Part shown: positions 29,181 to 59,048 of the stretch, piece by piece | Numbering within the stretch: the stretch's first letter is position 1 | Layout of the letters: every line of letters begins with the position of its first letter | NCBI GenBank assembly: GCA_963830105.1 | Contig: CAWHLH010000003.1 | Span: forward strand, 323,931-387,930 | Origin: an uncultured Gammaproteobacteria bacterium | GTDB taxonomy: Bacteria > Pseudomonadota > Gammaproteobacteria > DATFLG01 | Reading direction: 5' to 3' | Length of the DNA: 64,000 nt | Notes under the pieces: generated by a model | Databases searched by the model: none | Told to the model about the DNA's origin: nothing | What the model saw: the letters and a program-made list of their open reading frames with translations, nothing else | Position numbers and translations under genes: made by a program

Positions 29181-29348
29181 TTTGGTCGTTGCTCCAGACG
29201 GTGATCCCGTTGCCGAATCGGGTGCCGTTCGCCCCCGAGGCCCGGCAACCGCGATTCTTGCGATCCATCCTTGGAGAAGGTGACGTCAGTGGGCCGCTAT
29301 TCCCGACCTCCCCGGTCGGGATCAGGTTGAGTCTATGGAGAGAAGCTG

Positions 29349-29399
29349 ATAAATTAAAGTTTAAGTTTTTAACTCTTTTCTTTATTGATCATTTAATCG
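29349..29399 (+). promoter_or_regulatory. ~50-bp AT-rich conserved element, copy C (candidate CbbR operator / cbb promoter element)
   Basis: ATAAATTAAAGTTTAAGTTTTTAACTCTTTTCTTTATTGATCATTTAATCG, 13 nt upstream of the cbbR ATG. Closely similar to two copies upstream of cbbL. Confidence 0.55.
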
Positions 29400-29411
29400 A
29401 CGATGTAGACG

Positions 29412-30326
29412 ATGCCCATTCGACGCGCGACCCTGCATCAGCTCCGGATCTTCGATGCCTTGGCCCAGCACATGAGCATCACCCGCACTGCGCAGATGCT
29501 CCACCTGACACCGCCGGCCGTTTCCATTCAGGTCAAACAGTTAGCCGAGGCGGCAGGTCAGCCACTGGTGGAACAGGTAGGGAAAAAGCTCTATCTCACG
29601 GAAGCGGGCGAAGCCGTCGCTTCGGCCTGCCGCGACGTCTCGGCGCGCATGGAACGGCTTGTCCAGGAGCTGGCTGCGATCCAGGGGCTCGAGAAAGGCA
29701 CCCTCAGCGTTTCCATTCTCACCACCGCCAAGTACTTTGTGCCGCAACTGCTGGGCCAACTGAGCGCGCAGCATCCCGGCATCGAGGTCTCACTTTTCGT
29801 TGGCAACCGCAAGGCGATTCTCGATCGGCTCGCCCACAATCAGGATGATCTGTACATCCTCGGTCAGCCTCCCGAGAACCTGGGCGTCGTCACCCTGCCC
29901 TTCGCGCCGAATCCCCTGGTCGCTATTGCCCACCCGGAACACCCGTTGGCCGGAAAGAAGAATATTCCGCCGCAGCGCTTGGCCGAAGAGCCGTTCATTG
30001 CACGGGAACAGGGCTCGGGTACCCGCCTGGGGTGCGAGGCCTTCTTCCGGCGCCATGACACTACACCACGGGTGCGAATGGAGCTTGGCAGCAACGAAGC
30101 CATCAAACAGACGGTGGCGGGGCGACTGGGCATTTCCATCATCGCAAAGATCACTGTTGAAGCGGAGATCGCCCGAGGCAACCTCGCCATTCTGGACGTT
30201 GAAGGCCTACCCCTCGAACGCCAGTGGCACCTGGTCCATCCCGAGCACAAAATCCTGGCGCCGGCGGCGCTAGCGTTCAAGGACTTCCTTCTGTCCCAGC
30301 ACATCGGCGAGGACGCTCAAGCATAG
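29412..30326 (+). CDS. cbbR: LysR-family transcriptional regulator, probable RuBisCO operon regulator CbbR
   Basis: 304 aa. N-terminal LysR HTH (LHQLRIFDALAQHMSITRTAQMLHLTPPAVSIQVKQLAE). Bounds the carboxysome supraoperon and is divergent from a Calvin-cycle-type aldolase gene. Confidence 0.8.
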   Translation: MPIRRATLHQLRIFDALAQHMSITRTAQMLHLTPPAVSIQVKQLAEAAGQPLVEQVGKKLYLTEAGEAVASACRDVSARMERLVQELAAIQGLEKGTLSVSILTTAKYFVPQLLGQLSAQHPGIEVSLFVGNRKAILDRLAHNQDDLYILGQPPENLGVVTLPFAPNPLVAIAHPEHPLAGKKNIPPQRLAEEPFIAREQGSGTRLGCEAFFRRHDTTPRVRMELGSNEAIKQTVAGRLGISIIAKITVEAEIARGNLAILDVEGLPLERQWHLVHPEHKILAPAALAFKDFLLSQHIGEDAQA

Positions 30327-30883
30327 GCGCACCGTGGCCGCAGTCGGCGGGTCTTTTGCACCATGCGATACGTCGAGCGGTTATTGTTGAATCGCGAAAC
30401 CTGCCCCAGCGGTACCCATCGAACATCATGGGACTCGTCACTGCCCGGCACGGGCAGCCGGTCGTCGATCTCCACGAGAAAACGGACATCGATATGATCA
30501 TGCTCCGGACCCCGATGGCTGGCCGGGATACGATGGATATCGAGATCGAAGATCGGGCCGTCCACCAGGCGGAGTTGGTCCGCATCGATCCCGCTCTCCT
30601 CTGCGGTTTCACGCAGGGCGACCGCCACGATATCGGCCTCGCCGTCGGCGTGTCCTCCCGGCTGAAACCACTGGTCGTGTTTGCGGTGGTGCACCAGGAG
30701 CACCCGTGAGCGATCCGGGTTGACCACCCAGGCGGACCCCGTCACATGGGCCGGCCACAGATCGCAGCGAAAACAATCCGGATGCAGCTCCACAAATGCC
30801 CGCGACCGGTCGATATAGGCCGCCTCCTCCATGAACGGCGTGCGGTGCCGAGCCAATAAGCCGAGTAGTTTCTGGCGATGCAT
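30317..30883 (-). CDS. NUDIX hydrolase
   Basis: Internal ATG at 30883. Nudix box GGHADGEADIVAVALRETAEESG. Last gene of the minus-strand carboxysome-associated string. Confidence 0.8.
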   Translation of the reverse strand: MHRQKLLGLLARHRTPFMEEAAYIDRSRAFVELHPDCFRCDLWPAHVTGSAWVVNPDRSRVLLVHHRKHDQWFQPGGHADGEADIVAVALRETAEESGIDADQLRLVDGPIFDLDIHRIPASHRGPEHDHIDVRFLVEIDDRLPVPGSDESHDVRWVPLGQVSRFNNNRSTYRMVQKTRRLRPRCAYA

Positions 30884-30887
30884 GGCT

Positions 30888-31502
30888 TCACGTACCCGAT
30901 GGGTTGTTGACCGCCGCGATGGCCGCGGCCGCAGCCTCGTCGACGTCCGCCTCACGGCCGGACAGAGTCAGGCGCCCATAGGCACCGACGGCACGCACGT
31001 CGATGAGGGTGATGTTGGCGGCCTTCTCCGCCTGGTTGGCGGCATATACGATGTAGCCGGCCGGTTCGGTTTCCAGGATGAACATGCTCTGTTCGGGCAG
31101 GATCATCGAACCGCGACGGTTCTGCCGGTTGATCAGCACCGTGTGATCCGGCGTCATGCCCCGAATCACCTCCTGCCACGCGATCTGGCAAGGCCGTCGA
31201 TTGCGCACCTGGGCGCCCAGATGCTGGAGTATGACTCCGCCCGCCTCCTGCACGTCGCTCTGATCGCGATGGTGAATGACCATCGAACCGTACGCCCGCT
31301 CAACCACCTGCTGCGCCAGATTCACCCGCGTGGCCTTGAGCGCAATATCGGTCAGCCGATGGATCGCCATACCGGGCGACACCTCCACCCACAGACAAGC
31401 GTCGCCCGGTACGGGCAGGAAACCCTGCGACACCGTGGCCATGTACTCGGCAAGCTGCGGCTGCAACGAGTCGATATAGACGTATGTTCGAAGCTCTATC
31501 AT
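30888..31502 (-). CDS. csoS1D: Carboxysome shell protein CsoS1D (tandem BMC-domain pseudohexamer)
   Basis: ATG at 31502 with GGAAGAG RBS. ~204 aa with two BMC-like halves ([40 protein letters not shown]... and ...[48 protein letters not shown]), closely resembling CsoS1D. Confidence 0.8.
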
Positions 31503-31592
31503 CGAAAAAGCTGCTCTTCCAGAAATCCACAACCAGCCCCTGAGCGCGGCTTCGTGTCAATCGGCGATGGCGGTATGAACCCCCGGGGGCAA

Positions 31593-31919
31593 TCAGCCGC
31601 TGAATTTCACCAACCGGGTGATCTGAATATCGGAGATGAATACCACACCGGAATGTTCGTTATAGAAAGGCGCAAGACCCTCCAGGATCGGCTTGACCAA
31701 CTCTTCCGGGACTGCCGCAATGATCATGACCAGCACGTCGTCCTCATTGAACATGAGGTGGCCTTCGTGAAATCCGTGACTGCCCTTGCCCGAAAGATTA
31801 TTGATGATCGTATAACCCTTGACCCCCGCCCGGTCCAGGATGTCGGTGGCAAACCCCTGGTGTTCGCCACCCAGAATGATTTCAAGCTTCTTGAGCGGGC
31901 TGAAATTCAGATTGTGCAT
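31593..31919 (-). CDS. P-II-like signal-transduction family protein (SbtB/DAB-associated type)
   Basis: 108 aa. AGGAGA RBS. PII-fold length and sequence ([12 protein letters not shown]..., T-loop region [10 protein letters not shown]). Sits directly downstream of the dabA remnant, as in DAB operons. Confidence 0.65.
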
Positions 31920-34900
31920 GATTCGGTCTTCTCCTCGACGAAAGCCGGTTCGGGGCGCCCCACATGCGGGGCTTGGTCCACTGACCTTCCTCGTACACCT
32001 TCACGTCCCCCTGTTCCGGGTCGATGATCACCAGCCGGATCCAACCGTTGCGGACCAGCGCTTTCACGGCGGGCACACTCTCCACCGCCCGCCAGGCATG
32101 CTCAAACGGCGCCTCGATCACCGTGATCAGACGCAGCGGCTCATGGTAGGGGAGTCCACCGTCGAGAACGGTCTGCGCCGGCAGGCCGGTGCGCAGGTCG
32201 CTCAGATTCCCCGTCATCACACCGAAGCGACCGGCCACGTTGTGGTAGACCTTGCTGCCGCTGCCGAAACGCTCGTTGTCAACGGTGGAAAAGTAGTGCT
32301 CCATGTTGATCCATTGGCCGACCACCAACGGACCGGTAAGTATGTTCTCCAGCAACCTGCGCTTGGGATCGACGCGATAGTCGTAGGAATGCAGAAACGC
32401 ACGGCCCTCCAATGACATCGACTGGGTCAGGGCTCGACGGCCGATGACGAAGTACGCGTTGCCCGCCAGGCCCCATTCCGGACGCACCTGAGACCAGTCC
32501 ATGGCGTTGCGCTGGGCGTCCTTGAATGCTTCGCCCGGCTCCGGCGAACCTGCGTCCATCTGCAGAGCTGGCATGCGCTCCTGTGTGCAAAGACGGGACG
32601 CTGCCGTAAAACCCTTGCGCAGCCGATCCATGTACAGCACGTGGGACGGGGGCATCCTGTCCAGGTCGAACAGTTGCAGGCCGTCGGTCGTGGTGTCGTG
32701 GAGGGCGGGTACGAACGATGCATCGTCGGGGATATCAATGCCCTGTTCGCGCAGCCTGTGGCGCACCTCCGCCTTGTTCGCCATCTGCGCAAGAGCCCGG
32801 GCGTTGACCAGTCCGTGGTTACCTCCGCAGGCGCCGCAATCGAGTGCCGATTCGTAGGGATTGTTCTCGGAGGTGCTGCCATGCCCGACCAACAGGATGA
32901 ATCGGGAGAAGCCCGCCGTCAAACCTATGGAACGCAGCGCCTGTCCGACGAAACCGACCTGTTCGTCGAGGCTGAAACCCAGTCGCGCAAGCCGTTCCAT
33001 CTGTAGCTGGGCAAAGGACTGATCGATGCGATAGACCCGTCGCAGGCGCTCGATGAATGCCCGCTCTGCCGCTCGTCCACGTCGAGCGATTTCGCCAGCG
33101 CCGGGGCCCTGGCCGATTGCCCAGGGCCGATTCGCGAAATTCGCGGACGAGTGCATCGTTGATCCCTTCGGCCTCAAGGCCGAATTCTTGCTCCACCGCC
33201 TTGACGATCACGGCCCTTTGGACGGCGCGCACGATCGAATCCGCCTGCTCCCGGGTGAGCTTGTCGAGCAGCAGACGGGTAAGCGGCTTGCTCCATGCAG
33301 ACGCTGACGCCAGCGGTTGTAGCGGGCGGGATCAGGTCTTGCCGACCAGATCCAGACCAAACAACAAACCAATGGCCTCGACGGTGACAAACGGAGTGAG
33401 CACGGATTCCTTGAGCTCGTGCAAGACTTCTCCAGAGCGGTAAGGCGCCGGCATCCGCTTTACCTCCGAGATGGCCATTTCCAGAACGAGATTCTTAGGC
33501 GTCAGCAATACCGGGCAGAGATGGATCTCACTGCCCTTGCCCAATTCCATGAAGCTCACCGGCACGCCGAAAAAGCCCGCGATACCGTAGGTCTGGTAAT
33601 CGCCCACATTCTCCAGATGCCGACGGATTCTCTCGGAGCGGGTATCGATGCAAAACAGGGCCTGCGCGAACGGGCGCTTCTCCCGCGCAACGGCTGGCTG
33701 GTAACTGACACCATTGAGCAGGCGGTGCATCGCGCTCTGTTCCAGGGCCCGCAGCCAGATCATGCCTTCGCCTTGCTCGAATTCGCGAAGCGTGTCCAAT
33801 AGCCTGCGCAGCCCCTCCGTGGACAGATGCTGAAGCGCCTCGGGTTGACCCGCCTTGCGCGCCAGTTCCGCAAGCCGCCGCCCCTGGCATTCGGCCTCAT
33901 CAGAGCCGCTTCTGCGCTACATACTCGGAAAATAGCCGTTGAATTGTCCGAGGCCGACCGCCTGCCAGTGTCTGCTGACCCCGAGCGGCCAGGGCCGGCG
34001 ACGCCGAACCGCCATGCAGTTCGTGGCGAAGGTAGGTTTCCCTGGGCCGTTGCTCGATAGCTGCCATCACACTGGCTGCGCTGGCGGCGATTCCCTTGCG
34101 TCCCCGCTCGCTCGACGGCGCGACAGCAAGGGTCAGTCGCACTGCCATCAGGTCACCAGGTCCACCGGATAGCGCTCCGCCCGATGATAGTGCTTGGCGT
34201 TGGCCCGCCAGCGGATGAACCCCGCCCAACCATGCAGGCGTGCAAGCTCCCGTGCGAAGTAAGTCACCCACTGATCCTCGGGCACTCCGAGCATCTGCAT
34301 CGGCTGGGAGATGACCGCCTCGGGGCTATCTTCCTTACCGGCGACACGATTGATGTGCAGGCCCCGCAGATACAGACGGCCGTTGCGACTGGCGACATCG
34401 CGCCACGCTGCAAAGAAGCCCTGATTGCGCCCGGGCATACCCCATACGGACTGACCTTCGTCGAAGAAATCCAGGCAACTCTTGATCACCAGCTCGTCTA
34501 GCTCGGAGCCGATTTCAGTGCCATAAAGCGCATAACCGCTTCGTATACCGGGCGGGGCCCAACAACTAGCAGCGCAGCCGATCGGCCAGCGCCTCGCCGT
34601 CGAGCTGCGACGACACGTCCGGGCGGCCGTTCAGGGCGCTGTGTCATCGGGGATCTGCGCCAACGTATTGGCTTGAACGACGGGTAGTCCATCCCTGTCA
34701 GCAAGACTGACAACCAGGTGCGCAAGTCCACCTCGGGCAGCGCCTCCCGGTCCTCCATAAAGCGATTTACGGTGGCCACCAGCTCCGCCTGATCGACCTT
34801 CCCCTGGACCAGGTAACGCTGATAATCGGCCCGTTCAGGAAGCCCTTCGCATGGAACATCCGCCTGCCTTCCTCAACCGCCTCGGAGAATGGCGGATGCT

Positions 34901-34983
34901 CCAAACCGTGAAGCGGATTGTGGTGAATGAACGACCGCATGGGCCAGAAGTACGGAATGGGTTCTCCGGCCAAGTAGATCATG
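31882..34983 (-). pseudogene. dabA: DabA (DUF2309/PF10070, DAB CO2-uptake complex subunit A), fragmented by multiple frameshifts/stop
   Basis: DabA homology spread over at least 5 ORFs in three frames: 34767..35597 (N-terminus IYLAGEPIPYFWPMRSFIHHNPLHGLEHPPF), 34498..34779, 34148..34489, 33332..33799 (ALFCIDTRSE) and 31882..33177 ([22 protein letters not shown]). Frames switch in the order 2, 0, 1, 1 (separated by an in-frame stop), 0. Confidence 0.75.
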
Positions 34984-34999
34984 GCGCAGAACCGACTCT

Positions 35000-35773
35000 T
35001 TGGCCGAGTGGGAGCGTCATACCAGATCCCCCGTGAGCAGGAACCCGCTGACGAGCAGAATGACCAGCACCGCGGTGTAAGCCCAGGTGAAGCCACACTG
35101 AGATCCGGTGCTTCGCTACCGTTGGCCGGACCCACGATCAGTCCTTGAAGCAGGCGCGTTCCCGCCCAGCTCCAGAGCAGCCATACGCCCGCCACGGTCA
35201 GCGCAGCCAACGGCATCGTCGGCGTTATAGCAACGACGGTTGCCAGCATGGCGAAAAAGGTGGGGAACGACGGAGCGGCCACGATCGCCAGTACCACGCC
35301 CACCAGCACGCCGGACATCCGCGGGAGCGTCTGTGCCAGGCCGCCGTACAGACCCGTATAGGCGGCACCGAAACGCTCTTCCAGACGAGCGCCAAGCAGG
35401 GCGAGCAGCATCAGCGGCAGACTGAACCCGAGTGCGTACAAGCGCACCCGGGAAAGGTCCGTGTGAGCAAAGAGCGCAACCCACAGAGCGCCCACGCCGA
35501 GGTGGCCAGGTAGCCGATCCACTGACCCACTTCCCGCAGCCCAATGGCCCGAAAGGCATACAGGGCCGAGGTAAACAAAGCCAGGAACACACACCAATGG
35601 GGAATCGGTCGATTGACCGCATGCACCAGGCTCAAACCGAGTTGGGGCCAGACCAACAGCAGTACGACGCGCAGCGTGGCATTGCGTACCCGACTGAAAA
35701 GCACATTAAAGCCCATGCTCAACGGGAACAACGGCAGAAACAAGCCACCAAACCAGTAGGTCAACGTACTCAT
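35000..35773 (-). pseudogene. Frameshifted gene for a polytopic membrane protein between dabB and dabA
   Basis: Hydrophobic ORF 35411..35773 (MSTLTYWFGGLFLPLFPL...) continues in another frame in the 5' part of ORF 34767..35597 (...LPLMLLALLGARLEE...VLVGVVLAIVAAPSFPTFFAMLATVVAITPTMPLAALTVAGVWLLWSW...). Together ~240 aa, interrupted by a frame change near 35410-35600. Confidence 0.45.
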
Positions 35774-35774
35774 G

Positions 35775-37460
35775 TCAGACCCATCCCAACCAGACGTTCA
35801 GTCGTGTTGCCAGCGCCAACAGCGCCCGGGCGAAGCGGGTAAAGACGTCGGTCAGATAGAACTCCCGAGAAACCAGTGCATAGAAGGCCAGCCACAGTCG
35901 ACCGTGATGCTCGCCTTGGCGGCTTCCGTTCTGTTCCGAATAGTAGGTCAGCACCCAACCCGCCACGATCAACACCGTAACCAGGCCCACCAGGATGTCG
36001 AAGCGCAGCACGCCGATATTGGCCGCCGCATAGATCTGCTGACGGAACGCCTCGTCCGGATAGAGGAACAGATCGAAGGCGTGGCTGATGAGGGTGTAAC
36101 CGAGCACCACGATCGTGAAGGAAAGGATGCTCAGCGTCACCAGTCGCCAGAGGTTTCCGGCCTGCATACGATAGGTGGCGAAGATCAACTGGGCCCCGGT
36201 GACCCAGCCGAAAAACAACAGCACCACGGCGCCCTGTTCCTGGAAATAGTCCTGGCCGACCAGTGAATGGGCCACTATGAGTATGGTCACGGGCACCGCC
36301 AGGGTGATCGCCGCCATCAGCACCCAGGGCCGGCGAACCCTTGCGGGACGTCTCTCCACCACAAAGGTGTAGAGTTCGTCCTTCGGCAACCCGTCGTCCT
36401 TGCGGGCCGCACCGATCGCGCCGCCGGCGCCCAGAAAGAGCGTCCCTTTGAACAAGCCATGGGAAATGAGGTGAAAAATCGCGAGAGAAAATGCCCCCAC
36501 TCCGCATTCCATGATCATGAAGCCCATTTGCCCCATGGTCGAGTAGCCGAGCGACTTCTTGATGTCGTTTTGGGTAAGCATGAGGGTCGACCCGATGAGA
36601 GCGGTGACAAGACCAACGATGAACACCCAAGGCAGCACACCTTCCGTATGGGCGAACACGGGTGCGAAGCGGTTGATCAGAAATCCCCCCGCATTGACGA
36701 TCCCGGCATGCATCAAGGCCGACACGGGGGTGGGCCCGGCCATGGTGTAGGGAAGCCAGGTATGGAGCAGAAACTGCGCCGAGCGCGCAAAGGCGGCCAC
36801 CGCTACCAGACTGGCGACCAAGCCCGTCAATGGCAGTCCGAAAAAGCTGTAGATAACCGGGCCGTGGGCGATGTGAACGAATATCTCAGGCAAGGACCAT
36901 GTACCGAAGGCGTGATAAAGCAGACCTGCGGCGAGCACCAGAGGCAGGTCCCCGAAGCGATAGGTGATAAGCGTCCAGAAGGCATATCGGTGTGCGGCGT
37001 GACTGCGGGTATCCTGCCCCAGCAGAAAGTAGAGCAGGACCCCGATCAAATGCCAGGCGATCAACAGGGTGATCAGGTCCCCGGCGCAAACCATCACCAA
37101 CAGCGTCGCGGTCATGATGTCCAGCAGCACGAAGAAACGTCCATAACCGGCTTCCTCGGCCATGTAGCGCACGGAATAGATGTGCACGATCAGGCTTATG
37201 CCGGCGATAACCGTCGCCATCAGGGAGCTCAGGGGATCGAACAGGAATATGCCCCACGAACCCGCCAGGGAAATCTGACCCGAAGCCCCGTGGGCGACCG
37301 CCGTTGCCAGAACCACGACCGCAAGAGAAAAGGTGACGGCCGCGACAGTAACACTCACACGGGCGACCCGGCGCCCGAGCCGGGCGGACAACAGCTGTAC
37401 CAGCACAGCCGACACCAGGGGCAAAAGCGCGACCATTACGACGAGCTTTTCCATGGTCAT
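35775..37460 (-). CDS. dabB: DabB (NuoL/Mrp-antiporter-like, PF00361) subunit of the DAB CO2-uptake complex
   Basis: 561 aa polytopic membrane protein with complex-I antiporter-like subunit (NuoL/MnhA) features. Encoded directly after mcdB and before the dabA remnant within the cso supraoperon. Confidence 0.8.
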   Translation of the reverse strand: MTMEKLVVMVALLPLVSAVLVQLLSARLGRRVARVSVTVAAVTFSLAVVVLATAVAHGASGQISLAGSWGIFLFDPLSSLMATVIAGISLIVHIYSVRYMAEEAGYGRFFVLLDIMTATLLVMVCAGDLITLLIAWHLIGVLLYFLLGQDTRSHAAHRYAFWTLITYRFGDLPLVLAAGLLYHAFGTWSLPEIFVHIAHGPVIYSFFGLPLTGLVASLVAVAAFARSAQFLLHTWLPYTMAGPTPVSALMHAGIVNAGGFLINRFAPVFAHTEGVLPWVFIVGLVTALIGSTLMLTQNDIKKSLGYSTMGQMGFMIMECGVGAFSLAIFHLISHGLFKGTLFLGAGGAIGAARKDDGLPKDELYTFVVERRPARVRRPWVLMAAITLAVPVTILIVAHSLVGQDYFQEQGAVVLLFFGWVTGAQLIFATYRMQAGNLWRLVTLSILSFTIVVLGYTLISHAFDLFLYPDEAFRQQIYAAANIGVLRFDILVGLVTVLIVAGWVLTYYSEQNGSRQGEHHGRLWLAFYALVSREFYLTDVFTRFARALLALATRLNVWLGWV

Positions 37461-37499
37461 AGATCCCCTCCCCTCAGGTAGCGGTATACAATGACGCCC

Positions 37500-37727
37500 T
37501 CAGTCGGGCCACACGCGGCGCCCGCTCTGGTAAGGATCGCCGCGCTGCTCTCTGGTCCCCTGTGACGACCCCCGGCTCGCGGCCTTCTTTCGGGTGCGCG
37601 GCTGGGGCTTTTGAGCTCGGGGCTGCTTCTGCACGCTTTGTGGTGCCTCGGCCTTGGTTGCCGCAGCCGCCTTGGTCTTGCGCATGGAGTCCACCAGTTT
37701 CTCACCGGTTTTGTCGTTCGCAGTCAT
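37500..37727 (-). CDS. mcdB: Small basic disordered protein, candidate McdB (carboxysome positioning adaptor)
   Basis: 75 aa, Lys/Ala/Gln/Pro-rich low complexity, ends ...RRVWPD with a C-terminal tryptophan. Start overlaps the mcdA stop (ATGA). Position immediately downstream of the ParA-like McdA. Confidence 0.5.
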   Translation of the reverse strand: MTANDKTGEKLVDSMRKTKAAAATKAEAPQSVQKQPRAQKPQPRTRKKAASRGSSQGTREQRGDPYQSGRRVWPD

Positions 37728-38350: not shown

Positions 38351-38361
38351 GGGGCGAGGCC

Positions 38362-38625
38362 TCAACCGGTCCCGGCGCCGCGATACAGCTCGTCGAGTTG
38401 CTCGGCGAAACGACGCTGCGTCTCTCCCAGTTCATCCGCGCCTTCTTCGGCGTGAATGGTGAAGTTCGCGTAGTCGCGACCGAATCCGATGTCCGGATAC
38501 AACCCTTCGCGCTCGGACAGGTCCGCTGCACGATCCAGGAAATCACGCAGGGTGGAATAATCCGGAAATCCGTAGCGGCGTTCCAAGCGATTAGGACGTT
38601 TGCGTTCCTGCCATTGGTCACTCAT
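38362..38625 (-). CDS. Pterin-4a-carbinolamine dehydratase-like protein (alpha-carboxysome RuBisCO assembly factor acRAF-like)
   Basis: 87 aa. PCD/DCoH-like (RLERRYGFPDYSTLRDFLDRAADLSEREGLYPDIGFGRDYANFTIH). Canonical position after the bfr-like gene in cso operons. Confidence 0.65.
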   Translation of the reverse strand: MSDQWQERKRPNRLERRYGFPDYSTLRDFLDRAADLSEREGLYPDIGFGRDYANFTIHAEEGADELGETQRRFAEQLDELYRGAGTG

Positions 38626-38637
38626 GGCGCATCTTCT

Positions 38638-39117
38638 CTAAAAGGTGGCGCGCGGCTTTCCACGAACAGGGGCATCGGGCCGCTCCAGGCCTTCGAGCCA
38701 ACCGGCCAGCTCGCGTCCATGAGCCATTTCCTCCTCGAGAAGCGTCGCGAAGAACAGGCGGTTGTCATGATCGCCCTGACGGGCACAGTAGCGGGTGGCA
38801 TCGTCGTACAGCCGCACGAGTTCGTGCTCCAGCATCTGGTCGTGCCGCAACAGCGCCTGCAGGTCGTGTCCAAGCTGCACTGGACGCAGTTGGGATGCGC
38901 TGGGTGCCACACCCACGGCCAACATGCGTGCGATGACCCTGTCCACATGCCCCATCTCTTCGGTTGCTTCGTCGCGCAGTCGGTTGGCCGGTTCGGCCAG
39001 CCCCCAGGTCGCCACCAGTCGCGCCTGGGTGCTGTACTGCTGAACCGCGCTGAACTCGAGGCTCAGCGCTCTGCCGAGATAACCGAGAACACGCTGATCG
39101 GAAAGCCCCTGAATCAT
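38638..39117 (-). CDS. Bacterioferritin-like (ferritin/rubrerythrin-like) domain protein, carboxysome-operon associated
   Basis: 159 aa. Ferritin-like four-helix pattern with E...E..H motifs (EFSAVQQY...EATEEMGHVDR...EHELV...EEEMAHGRE). Confidence 0.7.
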   Translation of the reverse strand: MIQGLSDQRVLGYLGRALSLEFSAVQQYSTQARLVATWGLAEPANRLRDEATEEMGHVDRVIARMLAVGVAPSASQLRPVQLGHDLQALLRHDQMLEHELVRLYDDATRYCARQGDHDNRLFFATLLEEEMAHGRELAGWLEGLERPDAPVRGKPRATF

Positions 39118-39157
39118 GACGACGTATCCGTCAGTTGATCTGTACGCGTGGGCCTAC

Positions 39158-39481
39158 TCAGCTGCGAGCTGGGCGATTGCCGGCCATGGCGTTCTCGCCG
39201 TCGAGCACCGGTTCGACTTCCCGGTGCGGGCGGGCGATGATATGCGCCGCGACCAGACCGTCACCCACGCGTTCGCAGGCGTCGGCCCCGGCACGCACGG
39301 CCGCGTTTATCGCCCCCGTCTCACCACGCACCAGCACGGTGACGTAGCCGCCGCCCACGAACTCGCGTCCGATCAGACGCACCTCGGCGGCCTTGGTCAT
39401 GGCGTCCGCCGCCTCAATGGCGGGCACCAGCCCGCGGGTTTCAATCATGCCGAGCGCAATACCGTAGGTATTGTTGGCCAT
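39158..39481 (-). CDS. csoS1: Carboxysome shell hexamer protein CsoS1 (BMC domain), copy 3
   Basis: ATG at 39481 (MANNTYGIALGMIETRGLVPAIEAADAMTKAAEVRLIGREFVGGGYVTVLVRGETGAINAAVRAGAD...). Canonical BMC-H. Confidence 0.93.
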   Translation of the reverse strand: MANNTYGIALGMIETRGLVPAIEAADAMTKAAEVRLIGREFVGGGYVTVLVRGETGAINAAVRAGADACERVGDGLVAAHIIARPHREVEPVLDGENAMAGNRPARS

Positions 39482-39523
39482 GGCTGGAATCTCCTGTCGC
39501 ACGTAGAGTTTCTAGTAGGTTAC

Positions 39524-39841
39524 TCAGGCCGCCGCGGAAGCGGACTGATCGCCGCCGGTCGGCAGCACCGGTTCCACTTCGCGATGCGGACGCGCAATGA
39601 TGTGTGCCGCGACCAGACCGTCGCCAACACGCTCGCAGGCATCGGCTCCGGCACGCACCGCCGCGTTGACCGCACCGGTTTCACCGCGCACCAGCACGGT
39701 CACATAGCCGCCGCCCACGAATTCGCGCCCGATCAGACGCACCTCAGCGGCCTTGGTCATCGCGTCTGCCGCTTCGATGGCGGGCACCAGTCCGCGTGTC
39801 TCGATCATCCCCAATGCGATACCGTAATTGTCATTTGCCAT
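39524..39841 (-). CDS. csoS1: Carboxysome shell hexamer protein CsoS1 (BMC domain), copy 2
   Basis: 105 aa. Near-identical BMC-H core to the neighbouring copies, with a short divergent C-terminal tail. Confidence 0.93.
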   Translation of the reverse strand: MANDNYGIALGMIETRGLVPAIEAADAMTKAAEVRLIGREFVGGGYVTVLVRGETGAVNAAVRAGADACERVGDGLVAAHIIARPHREVEPVLPTGGDQSASAAA

Positions 39842-39883
39842 CGTTGGATCTCCGTCTTCGGAATTAAGAGAACATACAGCGTC

Positions 39884-40174
39884 TTACGTGTTACCCAATA
39901 CCGGCTCGACCTCGCGGTGCGGACGGGCAATGATGTGTGCGGCGACCAGGCCGTCACCCACGCGCTCGCAGGCATCCGCCCCGGCACGCACCGCCGCGTT
40001 GACCGCACCGGTTTCGCCGCGCACCAGTATGGTGACGTAGCCGCCGCCCACGAATTCACGCCCGATGAGACGCACCTCGGCGGCCTTGGTCATGGCATCC
40101 GCCGCTTCGATGGCGGGCACCAGTCCGCGTGTCTCGATCATGCCCAGTGCGATACCGTAACTTTCATCTGCCAT
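39884..40174 (-). CDS. csoS1: Carboxysome shell hexamer protein CsoS1 (BMC domain), copy 1
   Basis: 96 aa (MADESYGIALGMIETRGLVPAIEAADAMTKAAEV...). Canonical BMC-H. Confidence 0.93.
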   Translation of the reverse strand: MADESYGIALGMIETRGLVPAIEAADAMTKAAEVRLIGREFVGGGYVTILVRGETGAVNAAVRAGADACERVGDGLVAAHIIARPHREVEPVLGNT

Positions 40175-40189
40175 CTTCGTGTCTCCTGC

Positions 40190-40510
40190 TTACGTTGTTT
40201 CCCGTTCCAGGGCCCTCTTGCCCCGCCTGTTTCTGTCACTGTCGCGGCCGCCCGGCGTTGCGGTTTCGACCTCCCAGTAATCGATAATGCCGCCGATGGT
40301 GAGATCGGTGAGAACCCCGAAGTCACCGCAGGCGTATCGCGCGGCCGAGCCGCTGACGGTAAACACCCAGTTGCCCTCGCACGCACCCACTGGATCGACG
40401 GCCACATGCCGCCCGCCCTTTGAGTCTCGCAAGACCCGCAGGCTGGTGTGTTGCAGGCCCTGTATCCTGCGAGTGCAGACCAGCGGCGCTTCGACTTGGA
40501 GAATATCCAT
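40190..40510 (-). CDS. csoS4B: Carboxysome vertex (pentamer) protein CsoS4B (EutN/CcmL family)
   Basis: ATG at 40510 (MDILQVEAPLVCTRRIQGLQHTSLRVLRD...). BMC-P fold pattern. C-terminal extent uncertain. Confidence 0.8.
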   Translation of the reverse strand: MDILQVEAPLVCTRRIQGLQHTSLRVLRDSKGGRHVAVDPVGACEGNWVFTVSGSAARYACGDFGVLTDLTIGGIIDYWEVETATPGGRDSDRNRRGKRALERETT

Positions 40511-40519
40511 CGATCTGTC

Positions 40520-40777
40520 TCAGCCCTGCGCCTCTTCCGGGGGCCAGTGGTCAATTATTCCGACGATGGTCAAATCGCTCGGATATTCCTTGCTGCCTGC
40601 CGCTTCACGGGCGGCCGAACTGCCCACGCAGACCACCCAGTCGCCGGGAATGCAGCCCACAGCATCCACCGCCACCAGCATCGCACTGCCGTCACGCACC
40701 ACCTGCATGTGCCTGTGCTCCAGGCCAGGAATGCGATTGGTGGCAACCAGCGGCCGCTCCACCTGACAGATCTTCAT
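40520..40777 (-). CDS. csoS4A: Carboxysome vertex (pentamer) protein CsoS4A (EutN/CcmL family)
   Basis: Internal ATG at 40777 overlapping the csoSCA stop (TGATG). 85 aa (MKICQVERPLVATNRIPGLEHRHMQVVRDGSAMLVAVDAVGC...). Confidence 0.85.
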   Translation of the reverse strand: MKICQVERPLVATNRIPGLEHRHMQVVRDGSAMLVAVDAVGCIPGDWVVCVGSSAAREAAGSKEYPSDLTIVGIIDHWPPEEAQG

Positions 40778-42297
40778 CAGTGCGCTTCCCCTGTGGCATC
40801 GCCGTTGACAGAACAACCCAGCACTTCAATGCCGCCATGGGACGCGTGGTCGCGGACCAGCATCAGCGTGTACAGCAGACCGCCGTTGACAAGATCCGCA
40901 TAGCGTGCAGCGATGGCCTGCGCCACCCGCTGGCAGCGGCCTACCGCCCGTTCGCGCGCGCCCGGCACATGCCCCTGGTAGTCGTATCGCACTACCACCG
41001 GGATGGGCAGACCGTGGGCCACATTCAACCGGGAGAAGATCTTCACACCGACATCCAGGTCGGGAGCGGCCTCCTCGACTGTGTCGAGATAAGCGAAATA
41101 GGTGAGGTTGCGAAGCTGCACTTCCTCGAAACCCTTGCCCGCGCCGATGAAACGCTCGGCGTGCCCGATGTCCTGGTAGCGCCCGCCGTGATGGGCGCCC
41201 ACGTACTCGATCTGGGACAGGTTGTTTTCCAGCAGGCGTGAAATCAGCCGCCGCATACCTGCGGGCATATCGGGCGCTGCCTCGCGCATCCGCGCCTCGA
41301 TGCATTCCTTTGCCTGGTATTGCGACAACCGCTGGGTCGCCTCGTACAGTTCGTGCGCATCGACATACTGGTCCAGAGCGATGGCGCCATCGCCGTCCGC
41401 CACGTGCACGCGAATGGCATCGGTATCGGTGTCCAGTCCGATCAGCATGAGATCTATGGAAGCGCCGCAGCAGTGCGTGTTCTGCACCGCCTGCTGGAAG
41501 CTGCACAGCCGTTCCAGCCCGGCACGCGCCGCCGCCCCCGCGTCGGAGCCGTGGGCCGCACAGCCTTCACGGGCCGGGTCACCCGAACTGTAGTGGTAAA
41601 CCACCGCCTTCAGGTAGCGGGTGGGCGCATCGGCCGTGTTGGGGCGACCCTCGCGAAACCGCATCAGTTCGGTTTCGGTCCACTTTTCAAGACTGTCGTC
41701 GATGTCGAACAGCGCGCCCGCATAGGACTTGCGTCGTACCGCGCGGTAGGGCAGCCGGAGCACAAACCGTATGACGTGGGCCAGCCGGCCGTCGGCGCAG
41801 GGGGAGACATCCAGGGTATGGAAACCGCATTCCTGCAGAAATGCATCGAAGGCGTCTTCGTCGTGCGAGCCCAACGGGTCGTTGGCGAAGAAGTCATCGC
41901 AAAAGCGGCGATAAGTCTCGAATACACACCAGGCGAACAGGCGGCGCATGTCCAACTGCTCCACCCAGGCGTCGGCCAGAATATGCGCTGGCAGCTCAAA
42001 GCCCAGGCGTTCACGCGCCATGCGCTGCGCGCGAACCTCGAAATGCTCTTCGTGCTGCAGAGCGGAAATGCGCTTGAGGGTCGGCACGATACCGTCGAAG
42101 GCGGACTTGACCCGCTGTTCGTAGTCGAACAGTCGTGCGTTCTCCCCGACCCGCACCAGCGGCTGGCGAATCCGGTGCCCCGCCCCATCGGCGCGCAGCG
42201 CCGGCGGGCGCCCGCCAGCCACCGCCCCCGGACGCCGCCGAGGGGCGGCCGGCTGGGGCGCGGGCCTTTCAGGGGATGATTGCGGTAGTTGCAACAT
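40777..42297 (-). CDS. csoSCA: Carboxysome shell carbonic anhydrase CsoSCA (CsoS3)
   Basis: 506 aa. Characteristic CsoSCA sequence (FETYRRFCDDFF...HTLDVSPCADGRL...HCCGASIDLMLIGLDTDTD...). Canonical position between csoS2 and csoS4A. Confidence 0.9.
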   Translation of the reverse strand: MLQLPQSSPERPAPQPAAPRRRPGAVAGGRPPALRADGAGHRIRQPLVRVGENARLFDYEQRVKSAFDGIVPTLKRISALQHEEHFEVRAQRMARERLGFELPAHILADAWVEQLDMRRLFAWCVFETYRRFCDDFFANDPLGSHDEDAFDAFLQECGFHTLDVSPCADGRLAHVIRFVLRLPYRAVRRKSYAGALFDIDDSLEKWTETELMRFREGRPNTADAPTRYLKAVVYHYSSGDPAREGCAAHGSDAGAAARAGLERLCSFQQAVQNTHCCGASIDLMLIGLDTDTDAIRVHVADGDGAIALDQYVDAHELYEATQRLSQYQAKECIEARMREAAPDMPAGMRRLISRLLENNLSQIEYVGAHHGGRYQDIGHAERFIGAGKGFEEVQLRNLTYFAYLDTVEEAAPDLDVGVKIFSRLNVAHGLPIPVVVRYDYQGHVPGARERAVGRCQRVAQAIAARYADLVNGGLLYTLMLVRDHASHGGIEVLGCSVNGDATGEAH

Positions 42298-42433
42298 GCC
42301 TGTATCCGGAATCTCGCCAATCCAACGTTAACCGGTTCAGCCCCGGGCTCCACCGGAATAGGTCACCAGTGCGCCGCGGTCGGTATTGCCGCTACCGCCC
42401 GTGACTTTGCTCACGGGCTCCGGCACCTGGTCG

Positions 42434-44691
42434 TTACGCTCCCGCGTTGGAGAACGCGGGCATGGCGCTCACGGGACCGCCGCGGCGCGTCGGGTTGCGC
42501 CCCATGGACGAGGTCCCTTCGGTTCCCGTCACCCGGTCGCCGCGCTCCCAGTCGTCACCGGTAATCTTCTGACCCGCATCCATGCCTTCTCCGGTGATGC
42601 GCGACTTGATCCGCCCGTTGATGTCGTCGGAGGTAGGTGACGACGCGACGTCCTCTGTCAAGGCTGGGCGAGTGCCATGTCCGAAGCGTGCCTCCTCGGT
42701 CCCCGTGACCTTGCCGGCGGCCATTCCGAACGGTCCGGTAATCTGCCCCTGCTCATAGCTCGAACCGGTGACCCCGCCCTTGCGCGCCTCGACCTGCGCG
42801 GCCTGCGAGGGCGCCGTGACACTGAACCGCCCCCAGGGGGTTTCACCCAGCGGCTGAGGAAAATCGGGACTGCCGGGCTCTGCCGGAGTGGCAGGACAGG
42901 CGGCGGCGAACTGATCGGCACCCACGTACGGGGTCCCGCTGACGGGCTCGCAGGCGCCCTTGTCTGCACCGGTCAACGTTCCGCCGATTCCCGGCTGCTG
43001 GCCGGTCATGACGGAACCTGGCGTGCTGCGCTGCGCCCGGGTACGTGCCGCGGCCGATTGAGCCTGCTCCGGCTCGCAGTAGCTGCGGTATTGTTCCGCC
43101 CCGGCATAGGGCGTGCCGGTGATCGCCTTGCAGGTGCCGGGCTCGTCCCCCGTGACCTTGCCGGAGCGTCCAGTGAGCGTACCGCTGACGGCCTTGCCCT
43201 TCTGGGTCCGCGACACACCGACCTTGAAGTCGTCGGGCTCGGGCGTGGCGGCGCAGAACTTGCTGTACTGCTCCTTGCCGATGTAGTCATCGCCGGTGAT
43301 GTTGCGGCAGCTGCCGGGCTCGTCGCCGGTCACCCGTTCGCTGCGCCCTACCTGGGTGCCGGTCATGGAACCACCCCGCAAGGTCTGACTTCTGCCGACT
43401 TTGGACGGTACTTTGCCGTTGCCCGCCTGCATGTACTGGGTCCCCGTCAATTCACGCCCGGCACCTGCTTCGTCGCCGGTCACCCGGCTGGAGCGGCCCA
43501 CGTTGTTACCCGTTACCGTCTTATCCGTACGGGTTTGGGCACTGCTGATCTTCATCGGGCCGGGCTCGTTGGGAGTCCCACAGAAGGCTTCGGACTGATC
43601 GGCACCCACATACTGGGACCCGGTCACGCGCTTGCAGGTGCCCGGCTCGTCCCCGGTCACACTTCGGCTGCGGCCGACCTCGTTGCCGGTGACGCGGTTG
43701 CCGTGTCCCGTGGGACTGACACCGACTTTGCGCACCGACTTGCCGGGCTCGGTCTGGCAGAACTGCCGGAATATGTCGGCACCCAGATACTCGGTGCCGG
43801 TCACGTTCCGGCAGGTGCTGGCCTCGTCACCCGTGGTCCGGACACTGCGCCCGACCTGGGTGCCGGTCACGGTCTGGCCGTAGGCGGTTTCACCGGCACC
43901 GACCTTCCAGGGCGCATCCTGCGCAGCGCCTGGGCCGCTGCCCCCTTCCGGAGTCCGACGAGCGCGTTTGCGGCCACAGGGCTCGGACTTCTTCTGGCCG
44001 GATCCACCCTTTTGACTGCGCTGGGCGCGCAGGGCACGGGCGAGTTCACGGCTGGATAAGTTCGGGTTGGCGGCCCGCGCGGTCTGCGCCTGGCTCGGGC
44101 CGTTGCCCCGCAGTCCCGCTTTGCCCCGCGCGGACATGGCATGACGCCGAGCCAGGGCCGCAGCCCGCCCGACGCTCATGGAGGCGGCCCTGGTGATATT
44201 GCGGTTCACGGTGTGCTTCTTGGCCAAAGAACGGGACGGCGTGGAAGCCGCACCGCCACCGCTGTACTGGCCATGACGCTGTTCAGAACCATGATCGGCA
44301 TTCTGTTCCGGACGCTGATCGGCACGTCCCCGCTCACCCTTGCAGCCACAACCACAGCCGGATGTTTCCCGACCGGGTGCCGCACTCCCCGACTGCACCG
44401 CTCCAGCCGAATCCGCACGGGTGCGGTCCGGGGTGCTCATCCCGGCTTTCCCGCGGCTGGACATGGCTCTGCGCCGCGCCCGCGAGGCAGCTCGCCCTGG
44501 CGAGCTCACGGCTCCGGCGCCGAGAGCGGCCCAGGGGCACGGGATACAGCAGGCGCCGTCGTCTTGGGCTTGCTGCCCGAGGCACTCGTTGCGGCACCGA
44601 GACCGGCCTTGCCCTTGACGGACATGGCGCGGCGCCGGGCGCGTGATGCCTCACGACCACTGGAGTTGGGAGTGTTTGGAGTCTGTGCCAT
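42434..44691 (-). CDS. csoS2: Carboxysome scaffold protein CsoS2, annotated across an N-terminal frame break near 44506-44509
   Basis: ORF 42434..44509 (691 aa) has two further N-type repeats (GRAASRARRRAMSSRGKAG, ARRHAMSARGKAG), a weaker fourth, and many M-region repeats (VTG(D/N)E-x-G-x-C-x-x-(V/I)TG(T/S)-x-Y). The first N-repeat (GREASRARRRAMSVKGKAG) and a canonical N-terminus lie in ORF 44506..44691, offset by one base, with stop and GTG overlapping (GTGA). Confidence 0.85.
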
Positions 44692-44733
44692 CTCTTACCC
44701 CGTCGCGTCGATGTTTACCTTCCGTTACCGGGT

Positions 44734-45078
44734 TCAGCCGCGTCCTTCGAAGACGACGAACGCCAGACCCTGGCTCTGGGTGTAGTTGTCGTAACCGATC
44801 AGGCGAACGTGGTGATCCGGGTACGCGCGGTGGCAAGCCTCCAGTTCGTTGATCACGTTGGACAGGTTGGTCTCACCGAAGAAGGGCAGCTTCCACATGG
44901 TCCAGTAGTGGTTGGTGGCCCTGGAGGGATGCTCGTGCTCGATGGCCGGCGTCCAGCCCTGGGCGAGCAGGTAGACGATCTGCTCGTGTATCTCATCCTG
45001 GGTCATGGGCGGCAGGAAGCCGAAGGTCTCAAGGGTGTGGGCGGTCTGGTAGTCACCCATCTCGTACATGCTTGGCAT
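44734..45078 (-). CDS. cbbS: RuBisCO small subunit (form IA)
   Basis: 114 aa (MPSMYEMGDYQTAHTLETFGFLPPMTQDEI...YWTMWKLPFFGET...). Classic CbbS. Confidence 0.95.
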   Translation of the reverse strand: MPSMYEMGDYQTAHTLETFGFLPPMTQDEIHEQIVYLLAQGWTPAIEHEHPSRATNHYWTMWKLPFFGETNLSNVINELEACHRAYPDHHVRLIGYDNYTQSQGLAFVVFEGRG

Positions 45079-45133
45079 GGTCGTATTCCTCGCTTCAGTT
45101 CAGTCTCGGGTTCGCAGGGAGCGTGCCGTGCGA

Positions 45134-46546
45134 TCAGGCGACGTCCAGCTTGTCCACGGTTTCGAACTCGAACTTGATTTCTTTCCAGGTTTCCATCGCC
45201 ATGGCGAGCTCGGGGCTGTTGGCGGCGGCCTCGGTGAGGACGTCGCGCGCCTCCTTCTCCAGTTCGCGGCCCTGGTTGCGTGCCTTCACGCAGGCCTCGA
45301 GCGCCACCCGGTTGGCCGCCGCGCCGGCCGCGTTGCCCCACGGATGACCCTGGGTGCCGCCGCCGAACTGCAGGCAGGAGTCGTCGCCGAAGATGGTAAC
45401 CAGTGCGGGCATGTGCCAGACGTGGATACCGCCGGAGGCCACCGGGAACACGCCAGGCATGGAGCCCCAGTCCTGATCGAAGAACACGCCGCGCGAGCGG
45501 TCCTCCGGCACGAAGGATTCGCGCAGTTGGTCAACGAAGCCCAGAGTGGAGGCGCGGTCGCCTTCGAGCTTGCCCACCACCGTGCCGGAGTGCAGGTGGT
45601 CGCCGCCGGACAGGCGCAGGCACTTGGCCAGCACGCGGAAGTGAATACCGTGCTTGGGATGGCGGTCGATCACCGCGTGCATGGCACGGTGGATGTGCAG
45701 CAGCATGCTGTTCTTGCGGCACCACTTGGCCAGACTGGTGTTGGCCGTGAAGCCGCCGGTCAGAAAGTCGTGCATGATGATCGGCATGCCCAGTTCCTTG
45801 GCGAACTCGGCGCGCTCGTACATCTGCTCGGCATCCGGGGCGGTGACGTTCAGGTAATGACCCTTGCGTTCCCCGGTCTCGGCCTGGGCCTTGAGCACGG
45901 CCTCGGCCACGAACTCGAACCGGTTCTGCCAGCGCATGAACGGCTGGGAGTTGACGTTCTCGTCGTCCTTGGTCAGATCCAGACCGCCGCGCAGGCATTC
46001 GTACACGGCGCGGCCGTAGTTCTTGGCCGACAGGCCCAGCTTGGGCTTGATGGTGCAGCCCAGCAGCGGACGGCCGTACTTGTTGAGCCTGTCGCGCTCC
46101 ACCTGAATACCGTTCGGTGGCCCCAGGCAGGTCTTGATGTAGGCGATGGGGAAACGGATGTCCTCCAGGCGCAGGTGCTTGAGTGCCTTGAAACCGAACA
46201 CGTTACCGACCAGCGAGGTCAGCACGTTGACGATGGAGCCCTCCTCGAACAGGTCGATTGGATAGGCGACGAAGGCATAGAAGGACTCGGAATCCCCCGG
46301 CACGTCTTCAATGCGGTAGGCGCGACCCTTGTAGTACTCGAGATCGGTCAGCAGCTCGGACCACACGGTGCTCCAGGTACCGGTGGAAGACTCCGCGGCG
46401 ACGGCGGCGGCGACCTCTTCACGGGGCACGCCCGGCTGGCCGGTGCACTTGAAGCAGGCCAGCAGGTCCGTATCAAGCGGCACATAGTCCGGGGTCCAGT
46501 ACATCTCGCGGTACTCTTTCACGCCCGCTTGGTAATTCGCGCTCAT
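45134..46546 (-). CDS. cbbL: RuBisCO large subunit (form IA, carboxysomal)
   Basis: 470 aa with all hallmark motifs ([23 protein letters not shown], GGLDFTKDDE-like, active-site K in [13 protein letters not shown]..., YxKTFxGPxxG-like). AGGAGG RBS. Confidence 0.97.
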
Positions 46547-46653
46547 TGAGGAGTCCTCCTGTTTGCGATACTGAGTGTTAATCGATGGCTCCGCTTTGCG
46601 GCTGCGCAGCCCAAGCCTCCAGAAATTGGCGGCAGTTTATGGGGAAGGAATGA

Positions 46654-46703
46654 TTAATTACAGTTTAACTTTCTTACGTTCGCGTTTATGGATCGTTTAA
46701 TCC
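46654..46703 (-). promoter_or_regulatory. ~50-bp AT-rich conserved element, copy A (upstream of cbbL)
   Basis: ATTAATTACAGTTTAACTTTCTTACGTTCGCGTTTATGGATCGTTTAATCC, about 110 bp upstream of the cbbL start. Confidence 0.5.
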
Positions 46704-46753
46704 TTGGACGCATCGACCCGTCGTTGGAGCGGAGTGTACGGAGCAGCTGCGGA

Positions 46754-46803
46754 TAAATGACAGTTTAATTTTCTAACGATATTCTTTACTGATCCTCTAA
46801 TGT
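46754..46803 (-). promoter_or_regulatory. ~50-bp AT-rich conserved element, copy B (upstream of cbbL)
   Basis: ATAAATGACAGTTTAATTTTCTAACGATATTCTTTACTGATCCTCTAATG. Direct repeat of copy A, 100 bp further upstream. Confidence 0.5.
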
Positions 46804-59031: not shown

Positions 59032-59048
59032 CTCTCGGACCTATAAAT

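Follow-up and report, generated by a model that had tools for sequence, protein, structure and literature searches.

Conserved AT-rich modules in a tandem and split layout at a gammaproteobacterial carboxysome locus, putative operator-promoters for CbbR

We analyzed the cbb/cso locus of an uncultured gammaproteobacterium, which encodes RubisCO, carboxysome shell proteins and a DAB carbon pump within a stretch of 64,000 nucleotides (contig CAWHLH010000003.1, positions 323,931 to 387,930; in the following, the window). Three AT-rich repeats are located at the two ends of this locus, two in tandem upstream of cbbL (modules A and B) and one (module C) between cbbR and a divergent gene for an aldolase with a C-terminal Dabb domain. 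These repeats are real conserved regulatory modules. As judged from sequence and genomic context, they most likely serve as binding sites and promoters at which the CO2-fixation regulator CbbR acts; their layout, tandem and split, is unusual.

Three Related Modules at the Two Ends of the Locus

A repeat search grouped positions 29348-29397, 46652-46701 and 46752-46801 of the window as one three-member family, with all copies in the same orientation on the plus strand. As operators, they are assigned to the minus strand and comprise the cbbL-proximal module A (46652..46703, core GATTAATTACAGTTTAACTTTCTTAC), which is recovered by repeat family, position weight matrix and hidden Markov model, the cbbL-distal module B (46752..46803, GATAAATGACAGTTTAATTTTCTAAC...TTTACTGATCCTCTAAT) and module C (29348..29399), a conserved block amid diverged DNA in the aldolase-Dabb/cbbR intergenic region. 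Module A starts 106 nt from the cbbL ATG (46546), the distance between A and B is exactly 100 bp, and 12 nt separate the end of module C from the cbbR ATG (29412).

Over 52 ungapped nucleotides, A and B match at 37 positions, A and C at 38, and B and C at 40. The corresponding values for 20,000 composition-preserving shuffles, with offsets of +/-5 allowed, have a mean of 20.9, a standard deviation of 1.8 and a maximum of 31. An initial annotation had described three AT-rich copies of about 50 bp at both ends of the locus, with A and B as direct repeats 100 bp apart upstream of cbbL and with C in the intergenic stretch that separates cbbR from the divergent aldolase-Dabb gene. The match counts, the coordinates and orientation, and the gene calls agree with this description in all its parts.

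The family has no further members in the window, which has a GC content of 63.7%. A search with a position weight matrix built from the three copies, as proposed in the initial annotation, was run over the 64 kb and found only A, B and C, with scores of 81-90 bits and nothing else above 20 bits. A hidden Markov model (HMM) built from 22 orthologous sites likewise detected no fourth copy in the window. Four other AT-rich patches (13538-13630, 22921-22988, 59023-59138 and 60387-60482) reached at most 25 of 52 matches to A, B or C. These islands are intergenic and unrelated to the cbb module; one of them carries short tandem GTTAC/TTATT repeats (around 59045-59110) upstream of a gene for a pyridoxal phosphate (PLP)-dependent enzyme.

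A Putative -10 Box Accompanies Each Module

Alignment of 100-nt stretches showed that the similarity of A, B and C runs about 25 nt further left, to an AGTnTA box that lies 12-13 nt left of each copy (AGTTTA for A, AGTGTA for B, AGTCTA for C). Read on the minus strand, the box is TAnACT, a -10 hexamer of the sigma-70 type. Among the 37 unique sites described below, 36 have an AG(T/G)nTA box at the fixed distance of 12-13 nt from the operator. No match to a -35 hexamer was found at the minus-strand modules, and a sigma-70 consensus scan of both regions gave no minus-strand promoter above threshold, which fits activator dependence, although it is not proof. Because a conserved TAnACT box accompanies each operator, each unit of about 75 bp looks like a complete activator-dependent minus-strand promoter.

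In this orientation, modules A and B point to cbbL, and module C points to the aldolase-Dabb gene and not to cbbR. For the proximal cbbL promoter, the -10-like hexamer TAAACT at 46634..46639 (minus strand; AGTTTA on the plus strand) would place the start near 46627, with a 5' untranslated region (UTR) of about 81 nt. The candidate hexamer of the distal promoter is TACACT at 46733..46738 (minus strand; AGTGTA on the plus strand), with a 13-nt gap to the operator and a predicted start near 46726. For the aldolase-Dabb promoter, TAGACT at 29330..29335 (minus strand; AGTCTA on the plus strand) predicts a start near 29323 and a 5' UTR of about 143 nt.

The cbbL leader (46547-46627, about 80 nt) is strongly conserved in the clade and in Nitrococcus, with the pattern TTTCTGGAGGCT..GGCTGCG..CGCGAAGCC..CGAT..GCAAACAGGAGGACTCC. 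Folds of the predicted 5' UTRs were no better than those of shuffled sequences (z = -0.14 and +0.39), and a 5' hairpin at 29296-29320 was not used as evidence for this reason.

Occurrence in Genomes and Metagenomes

One genome per species, from 185,579 species, was scanned with an exact pattern. The 19 loci found consist of 6 chance matches in genomes of 29-37% GC and 13 GC-rich loci, which belong to related metagenome-assembled genomes (MAGs) and to Nitrococcus mobilis Nb-231. Six of these 13 matches lie shortly upstream of cbbL; the other seven fall between cbbR and the aldolase gene. A looser exact pattern, applied to metagenome contigs, gave at least 120 matches, mostly chance ones in AT-rich DNA. 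At least 16 metagenome loci combine a locus GC content of at least 58% with an HMM match, with eight of them upstream of cbbL, seven adjacent to cbbR and one (L052) in both positions. Together, the two scans identify at least 29 GC-rich loci, all of which, among the matches listed, are just upstream of cbbL or beside cbbR. The remaining listed matches are in DNA of 15-53% GC and have no HMM match.

Related genomes contain two or three copies each, all at cbbL or cbbR. Since the matches sit at these genes across relatives, the motif is neither a generic repeat nor confined to the source genome. This answers two concerns of the initial annotation, namely that the element might be abundant throughout the genome or absent from the cbb promoters of close relatives: there are three copies in the window, the at least 29 GC-rich loci are all at cbbL or cbbR, and all close relatives examined carry the module at their cbb promoters, as does Nitrococcus mobilis at cbbL.

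The surroundings of module C were compared in three relatives (CbbR 90%, 85% and 81% identical) that keep the aldolase/cbbR/NUDIX...cso synteny. In all three, the module is a conserved island in an otherwise poorly conserved aldolase-cbbR intergenic region. The identity of CbbR homologues from uncultivated Gammaproteobacteria falls gradually from 99% to about 60%, in a series that includes 'Chromatiales bacterium 21-64-14', Thiogranum, Thiohalobacter and Acidithiobacillus.

Two Classes of Module Upstream of cbbL

Modules were found upstream of the RubisCO genes in seven of seven aligned genomes and in at least nine metagenome loci. In the alignment of the 450 nt upstream of cbbL, all seven genomes, including Nitrococcus, have both modules, each with its own TAnACT box; the distal module is thus as constant as the proximal one. 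The distance between the two modules is 95-101 bp across genomes. Unique proximal sites (12 in number) start 103-106 nt from the cbbL ATG, and the Nitrococcus site 118 nt from it. The gap between the box and the GAT of the operator is 12 nt in proximal and cbbR-adjacent modules, and 13 nt in almost all distal modules.

Because the tandem pair is present in all seven genomes and the gap separates a 12-nt from a 13-nt class, the sequences indicate that A and B are two long-standing classes and not the result of a recent duplication. More generally, A, B and C resemble each other because an old module has been kept under the same functional constraint. Helical phasing or looping between A and B was also considered; strict phasing is unsupported, because the spacing varies among genomes.

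Motif Conservation and Symmetry

The 37 unique sites have the plus-strand consensus agt.ta-N12/13-tgATAAATtACAGTTTAAgTTTcTAAA-N7-TTTA...ATc.TTTAA. About 20 positions are near-invariant, and these include G and C positions (ACAG, GAT). A complementarity analysis distinguishes three dyads. The first, TTTA-N6-TAAA, extends to a perfect ACAGTTTAA-N4-TTAAACTGT at loci L010, L018 and L019. The second, AA.TTA.A-G-T.TAA.TT, is of odd length, overlaps the first and lies 7.5 bp nearer to the promoter. The third, TTnA-N3-AT-N3-TnAA, is located 22 bp farther from the promoter than the first and resembles a recognition binding site (RBS) of LysR-type transcriptional regulators (LTTRs). In the window, the first dyad appears as TTTA-N6-T(T)AC at 46664-46677 in module A and as TTTA-N6-TAAC at 29360-29373 in module C, and the RBS-like dyad as TTTATGGATCGTTTAA at 46685-46700 and as TTTATTGATCATTTAA at 29381-29396, respectively.

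If transcription is assumed to start 7 nt past the TAnACT box, the dyad axes would be at about -65.5 (TTnA-N3-AT-N3-TnAA), -43.5 (TTTA-N6-TAAA) and -36 (AA.TTA.A-G-T.TAA.TT). LTTR promoters have an RBS near -65 and two activation binding site (ABS) sub-sites (PMC4730206), and the predicted axes would match this layout of one RBS and two ABS.

The initial annotation had pointed to T-N11-A-like half-sites. They are indeed present, within TTA-N8-TTA, but motifs of this kind carry little information in AT-rich DNA, and the real dyads, TTTA-N6-TAAA and TTnA-N3-AT-N3-TnAA, have even-numbered spacings. All three window copies also contain GATC, but only about 15 of the 37 unique sites do so. A role for Dam methylation was rejected, because the central A-T of the dyad is conserved and GATC is not.

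Association With cbbR and a Putative cbbR Promoter

Every CbbR studied so far binds in the cbbR-cbbL intergenic region (PMC2942843). In each of the 12 lineages compared, 5-36 nt separate the end of the module from the cbbR start codon. At locus L052 (CbbR 78% identical), cbbL and cbbR are divergent, with a single module between them at a distance of 109 nt to the cbbL ATG and 8 nt to that of cbbR. The classical divergent cbbL/cbbR arrangement, again with a single module between both genes, is also found at locus L026 (CbbR 71% identical). Here, the cbbL leader contains a direct duplication of about 70 bp (cattgatgaatgaacgatgaataacaaacc...; positions 9672-9812 of L026) between the module and cbbL, which increases the distance of the module to the cbbL ATG from about 105 to 175 nt.

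Thiogranum and Thiohalobacter have their own diverged variants of the motif, each as a pair with one copy upstream of cbbL and one adjacent to cbbR (48 of 64 positions are identical in the Thiogranum pair). Such lineage-specific paired variants are predicted if the motif co-evolves with the neighboring regulator. The proposal of the initial annotation that the copies are candidate CbbR operators gains indirect yet coherent support from several sides: the restriction of the loci to cbbL and cbbR, the adjacency to cbbR, the layout at L052 and L026, and a geometry that appears to be of the LysR type.

Copies adjacent to cbbR differ from the others by putative promoter signals on the plus strand. 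In module C, the predicted cbbR promoter (29327..29355, plus strand) combines TTGAGT at 29327-29332 as -35 element with TG-A-TAAATT at 29347-29355 as extended -10 element, across a spacer of 17 nt (TTGAGT-17-TGATAAATT in short form). Its conservation is limited to cbbR-adjacent copies. TGATAAA is present in 12 of 12 cbbR-adjacent sites versus 3 of 24 cbbL-linked sites, and the TTG of TTGAGT in 10 of 12 versus 1 of 24. The sigma-70 scan did not report this promoter because its score, 8 of 12 consensus positions, falls under the threshold.

The minus-strand -10 box and the operator's edge fall within the predicted cbbR promoter, and cbbR transcription would start near 29362, inside the operator. 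Because of this overlap, a bound protein would cover about +1 to +40 of cbbR, and the class-specific plus-strand promoter fits autorepression. The suggestion of the initial annotation that module C serves cbbR autoregulation takes a concrete form with this promoter, yet it has to be widened, as C faces the aldolase-Dabb gene, for which it is probably the activation site too.

Proposed Mechanism and Alternative Explanations

We propose that each copy is the operator half of a LysR-type, activator-dependent promoter module of about 75 bp on the minus strand, and that the binding protein is most likely the product of the cbbR gene at 29412-30326. As a tetramer, CbbR would occupy the RBS-like distal dyad and one of the two ABS dyads, and recruit RNA polymerase. 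At modules A and B, the cbbLS-cso-dab string would be switched on from two tandem promoters about 100 bp apart, and at module C the aldolase-Dabb gene would be switched on. CbbR bound at C would at the same time sit on about +1 to +40 of the divergent sigma-70 promoter of cbbR and repress its own gene. We give this model, with CbbR as activator of the -35-less cbbL and aldolase-Dabb promoters and repressor of cbbR, a probability of about 0.75. It builds on what is directly seen: a repeat that occurs, among the GC-rich matches listed, exclusively at cbb loci, that is conserved, symmetrical, evenly spaced and in part tandem, and that carries promoter signals specific to its cbbR-adjacent copies.

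Several points weigh against the model. Where transcription starts, which protein binds and whether it activates or represses are predictions, and all promoter coordinates depend on the predicted -10 box. The RBS-like dyad is much less conserved than the promoter-proximal half, which is the reverse of most LTTR operators, and T-N11-A and TNA-N7/8-TNA motifs come nearly free in AT-rich DNA. The exact-pattern scans leave room for weaker sites at other genes. Finally, the module HMM does not match the footprinted operator of Acidithiobacillus ferrooxidans, and its match to the control region of Cupriavidus metallidurans is marginal (nhmmer E = 0.018 in an 8-sequence search).

The core palindrome ACAGTTTAA-N4-TTAAACTGT at about -43.5 might instead be a class II site for a regulator of the Crp/Fnr family or another dimeric regulator, with CbbR bound at most to the distal dyad. 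Class II Crp/Fnr sites are located at -41.5. The core is a 22-bp palindrome with an N4 center, perfect at the three loci mentioned above, it would lie at the class II position on a promoter without a -35 hexamer, and it is better conserved than the RBS-like dyad. In addition, a crp/fnr-type regulator is associated with a high-CO2-requiring phenotype in Halothiobacillus neapolitanus, a species whose CO2-concentrating mechanism requires such a factor (bioRxiv 10.1101/476713). We nevertheless consider this explanation unlikely, because it lacks a linked gene and the motif co-varies with cbbR. No Crp/Fnr gene was found in the window or at any relative locus examined, whereas all 12 lineages have cbbR directly beside the module, and in Thiogranum and Thiohalobacter the motif drifts along with the adjacent cbbR. 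Moreover, the right arm past TAAA is complementary in just about 40% of the sites, and one site plus two overlapping ones is a known CbbR pattern, as far as it is described in PMC5506194.

Similarity by composition only is still harder to reconcile with the data. Generic AT-rich promoter DNA (UP elements, curved DNA, or targets of H-NS, IHF or Fis) would explain why the elements are AT-rich islands with many A/T tracts, located upstream of promoters in a genome of 64% GC. It would not explain 37-40 matches when composition-matched shuffles never exceed 31, the failure of the other AT-rich patches in the window to match, or the near-invariant positions that include G and C, and we regard it as very improbable. 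A dispersed repeat (of the repetitive extragenic palindrome, REP, or miniature inverted-repeat transposable element, MITE, type) or a structured RNA motif transcribed from the plus strand appears least probable of all. The three copies and a weak terminal inverted symmetry (GATTAA...TTAATC) would suit a repeat, and an RNA element at C would fall in the cbbR 5' UTR. However, there are two or three copies per genome, always at cbbL or cbbR; an Rfam search over the elements gave no family at E <= 1; A and B are not upstream of a nearby plus-strand gene that lacks its own promoter; and the conservation pattern is one of DNA dyads and a hexamer, not of helices.

If CbbR acts as proposed, the CbbR regulon can stay intact even with cbbR 17 kb from cbbL, because the operator-promoter module is copied and not shared. 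A more far-reaching interpretation, which we offer tentatively and at clearly less than even odds, would see the module as a portable, self-contained CbbR promoter cassette that has served three roles in this clade since before the Nitrococcus split. In this view, the two anciently distinct tandem promoters at cbbL, one with a 12-nt and one with a 13-nt spacer and 95-101 bp from each other, would control carboxysome expression in two tiers, and the third copy would bring a non-canonical aldolase-Dabb gene into the CO2-fixation regulon and free cbbR from cbbL.

The general understanding of LysR-type regulation is not changed by these findings. CbbR operators before cbbL and cbbR are expected. 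It is mildly unusual that the tandem modules are conserved, that the whole module is used again for a non-canonical aldolase-Dabb gene, and that cbbR lies apart from cbbL. The analysis provides a sequence-level model for the switching of carboxysome, RubisCO and DAB carbon-pump genes in an uncultivated clade of sulfur-oxidizer-like Gammaproteobacteria and in Nitrococcus, together with a 37-site motif, predicted start sites and a predicted additional regulon member, the aldolase-Dabb fusion.

Gene Content of the Locus

Gene calls with Pfam and NCBIfam bear out the gene map of the initial annotation, with a cbbL/cso string, cbbR and the divergent aldolase-Dabb gene. The string is on the minus strand, begins with cbbL (45134..46546) and ends at the NUDIX gene (30317). 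It comprises cbbL, cbbS, csoS2, csoSCA, csoS4A/B and three csoS1 genes, and further genes for ferritin-like, pterin-dehydratase-like and ParA-like proteins, dabB, dabA, P-II, csoS1D and the NUDIX protein. The cbbR gene (29412..30326, plus strand) is convergent with the end of this string and encodes a LysR-type regulator of 304 amino acids (aa) with the Pfam domains HTH_1 and LysR_substrate. Its top NCBIfam match is CbbR with 277 bits, compared to 163 bits for the runner-up family. It is 61% identical to the CbbR of Acidithiobacillus, and the LHLTPPA-SIQVKQLA stretch differs by one residue.

The gene divergent from cbbR (27942..29180, minus strand), the predicted target of module C, encodes a class II ketose-bisphosphate aldolase with a C-terminal Dabb (stress-responsive alpha/beta-barrel) domain. 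Assignment as the canonical CbbA of the Calvin cycle was rejected, as the TIGR01521 score is merely 89 bits. In the relative L001, the aldolase is called at only 341 aa, and Dabb is missing from the listed Pfam hits. A search of the window for other regulators or Calvin-cycle genes yielded a distant TetR gene and nothing else.

At 31942-35773 (minus strand), dabA and the preceding gene for a 252-aa protein are broken over all three frames at several points. Relatives carry an intact DabA of 1039 aa, and the genes adjoining the broken dabA in the window are intact. Either the DAB pump is decaying, or the assembly has local insertion/deletion errors.

An open reading frame (ORF) of 67 aa (MTDELEEAHKPQFESAPGQARKAATVED...ALPPEER), at 47000-47203 on the plus strand, is divergent from cbbL. 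It has no match in Pfam or NCBIfam and 78-98% identity in every clade locus that extends that far, and its 137 homologue clusters have 'hypothetical protein' as the source name in all listed cases. A promoter-like site, TTTACA-17-TAAAGT, is conserved at 46902-46930 (plus strand). In Thiohalorhabdus methylotrophus (L147) and the MAG L148, the homologue directly follows dabB-(252 aa)-dabA-P-II on the same strand. Because of this neighborhood, the ORF looks like an uncharacterized small protein linked to the CO2-concentrating machinery. The roughly 650 bp that separate the small ORF from the cptA/sdhE-like genes (47200-47850) contain no convincing ORF and no significant Rfam match.

Comparison With Known Systems

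The cbb operator-promoters of Cupriavidus necator and C. metallidurans, with a CbbR R-site and A-site upstream of cbbL, resemble the modules in that an AT-rich operator immediately precedes a promoter whose -35 element is weak or absent, and in that the regulator is of the CbbR type. The C. metallidurans cbbR-cbbL control region, which served for CbbR-site logos (PMC2942843, supplement 3), has TTAAAGTTTAAATTA 29 nt from CATACT, and module C has TTAAACTTTAATTTA 29 nt from TAGACT, with 13 of 15 positions identical. The arrangement of the genes differs. Cupriavidus has one operator between divergent cbbR and cbbL genes, whereas the window has two tandem modules at cbbL and a third at cbbR, 17 kb away, and its cbbR gene meets the end of the gene string tail-to-tail and the aldolase-Dabb gene head-to-head.

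In A. ferrooxidans, the RbcR/CbbR operator has been footprinted and contains TNA-N7-TNA boxes (PMC2942843). It shares with the modules a high AT content and half-sites of the TTA/TAA type, and it controls a cbbLS-cso operon, as is predicted here. It differs in spacing, with TNA-N7-TNA in contrast to TTTA-N6-TAAA and TTnA-N8-TnAA here, and in its single divergent layout. In Xanthobacter flavus, the CbbR sites IR1, IR2 and IR3, one site followed by two overlapping ones, are located between the regulator and RubisCO genes, according to the description in PMC5506194 (citing van Keulen et al.). The predicted axes in the window, 22 bp and 29.5 bp from the distal dyad, would match this one-plus-two overlapping pattern. 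The sequences differ, however, so that the likeness to the X. flavus sites as described there is an architectural one, with sub-sites in the window that are deduced from symmetry.

The modules also resemble LTTR promoters of the 'sliding dimer' type (BenM, DntR, OccR), with their RBS, ABS' and ABS'' sub-sites (PMC4730206). As is predicted for the window, these have an RBS near -65 and two activation sub-sites nearer to the promoter, and a divergent autoregulated regulator gene whose own promoter overlaps the operator. The modules described here differ from them in that the ABS region, and not the RBS, is best conserved, and in that a whole module with its -10 box is reused at three promoters.

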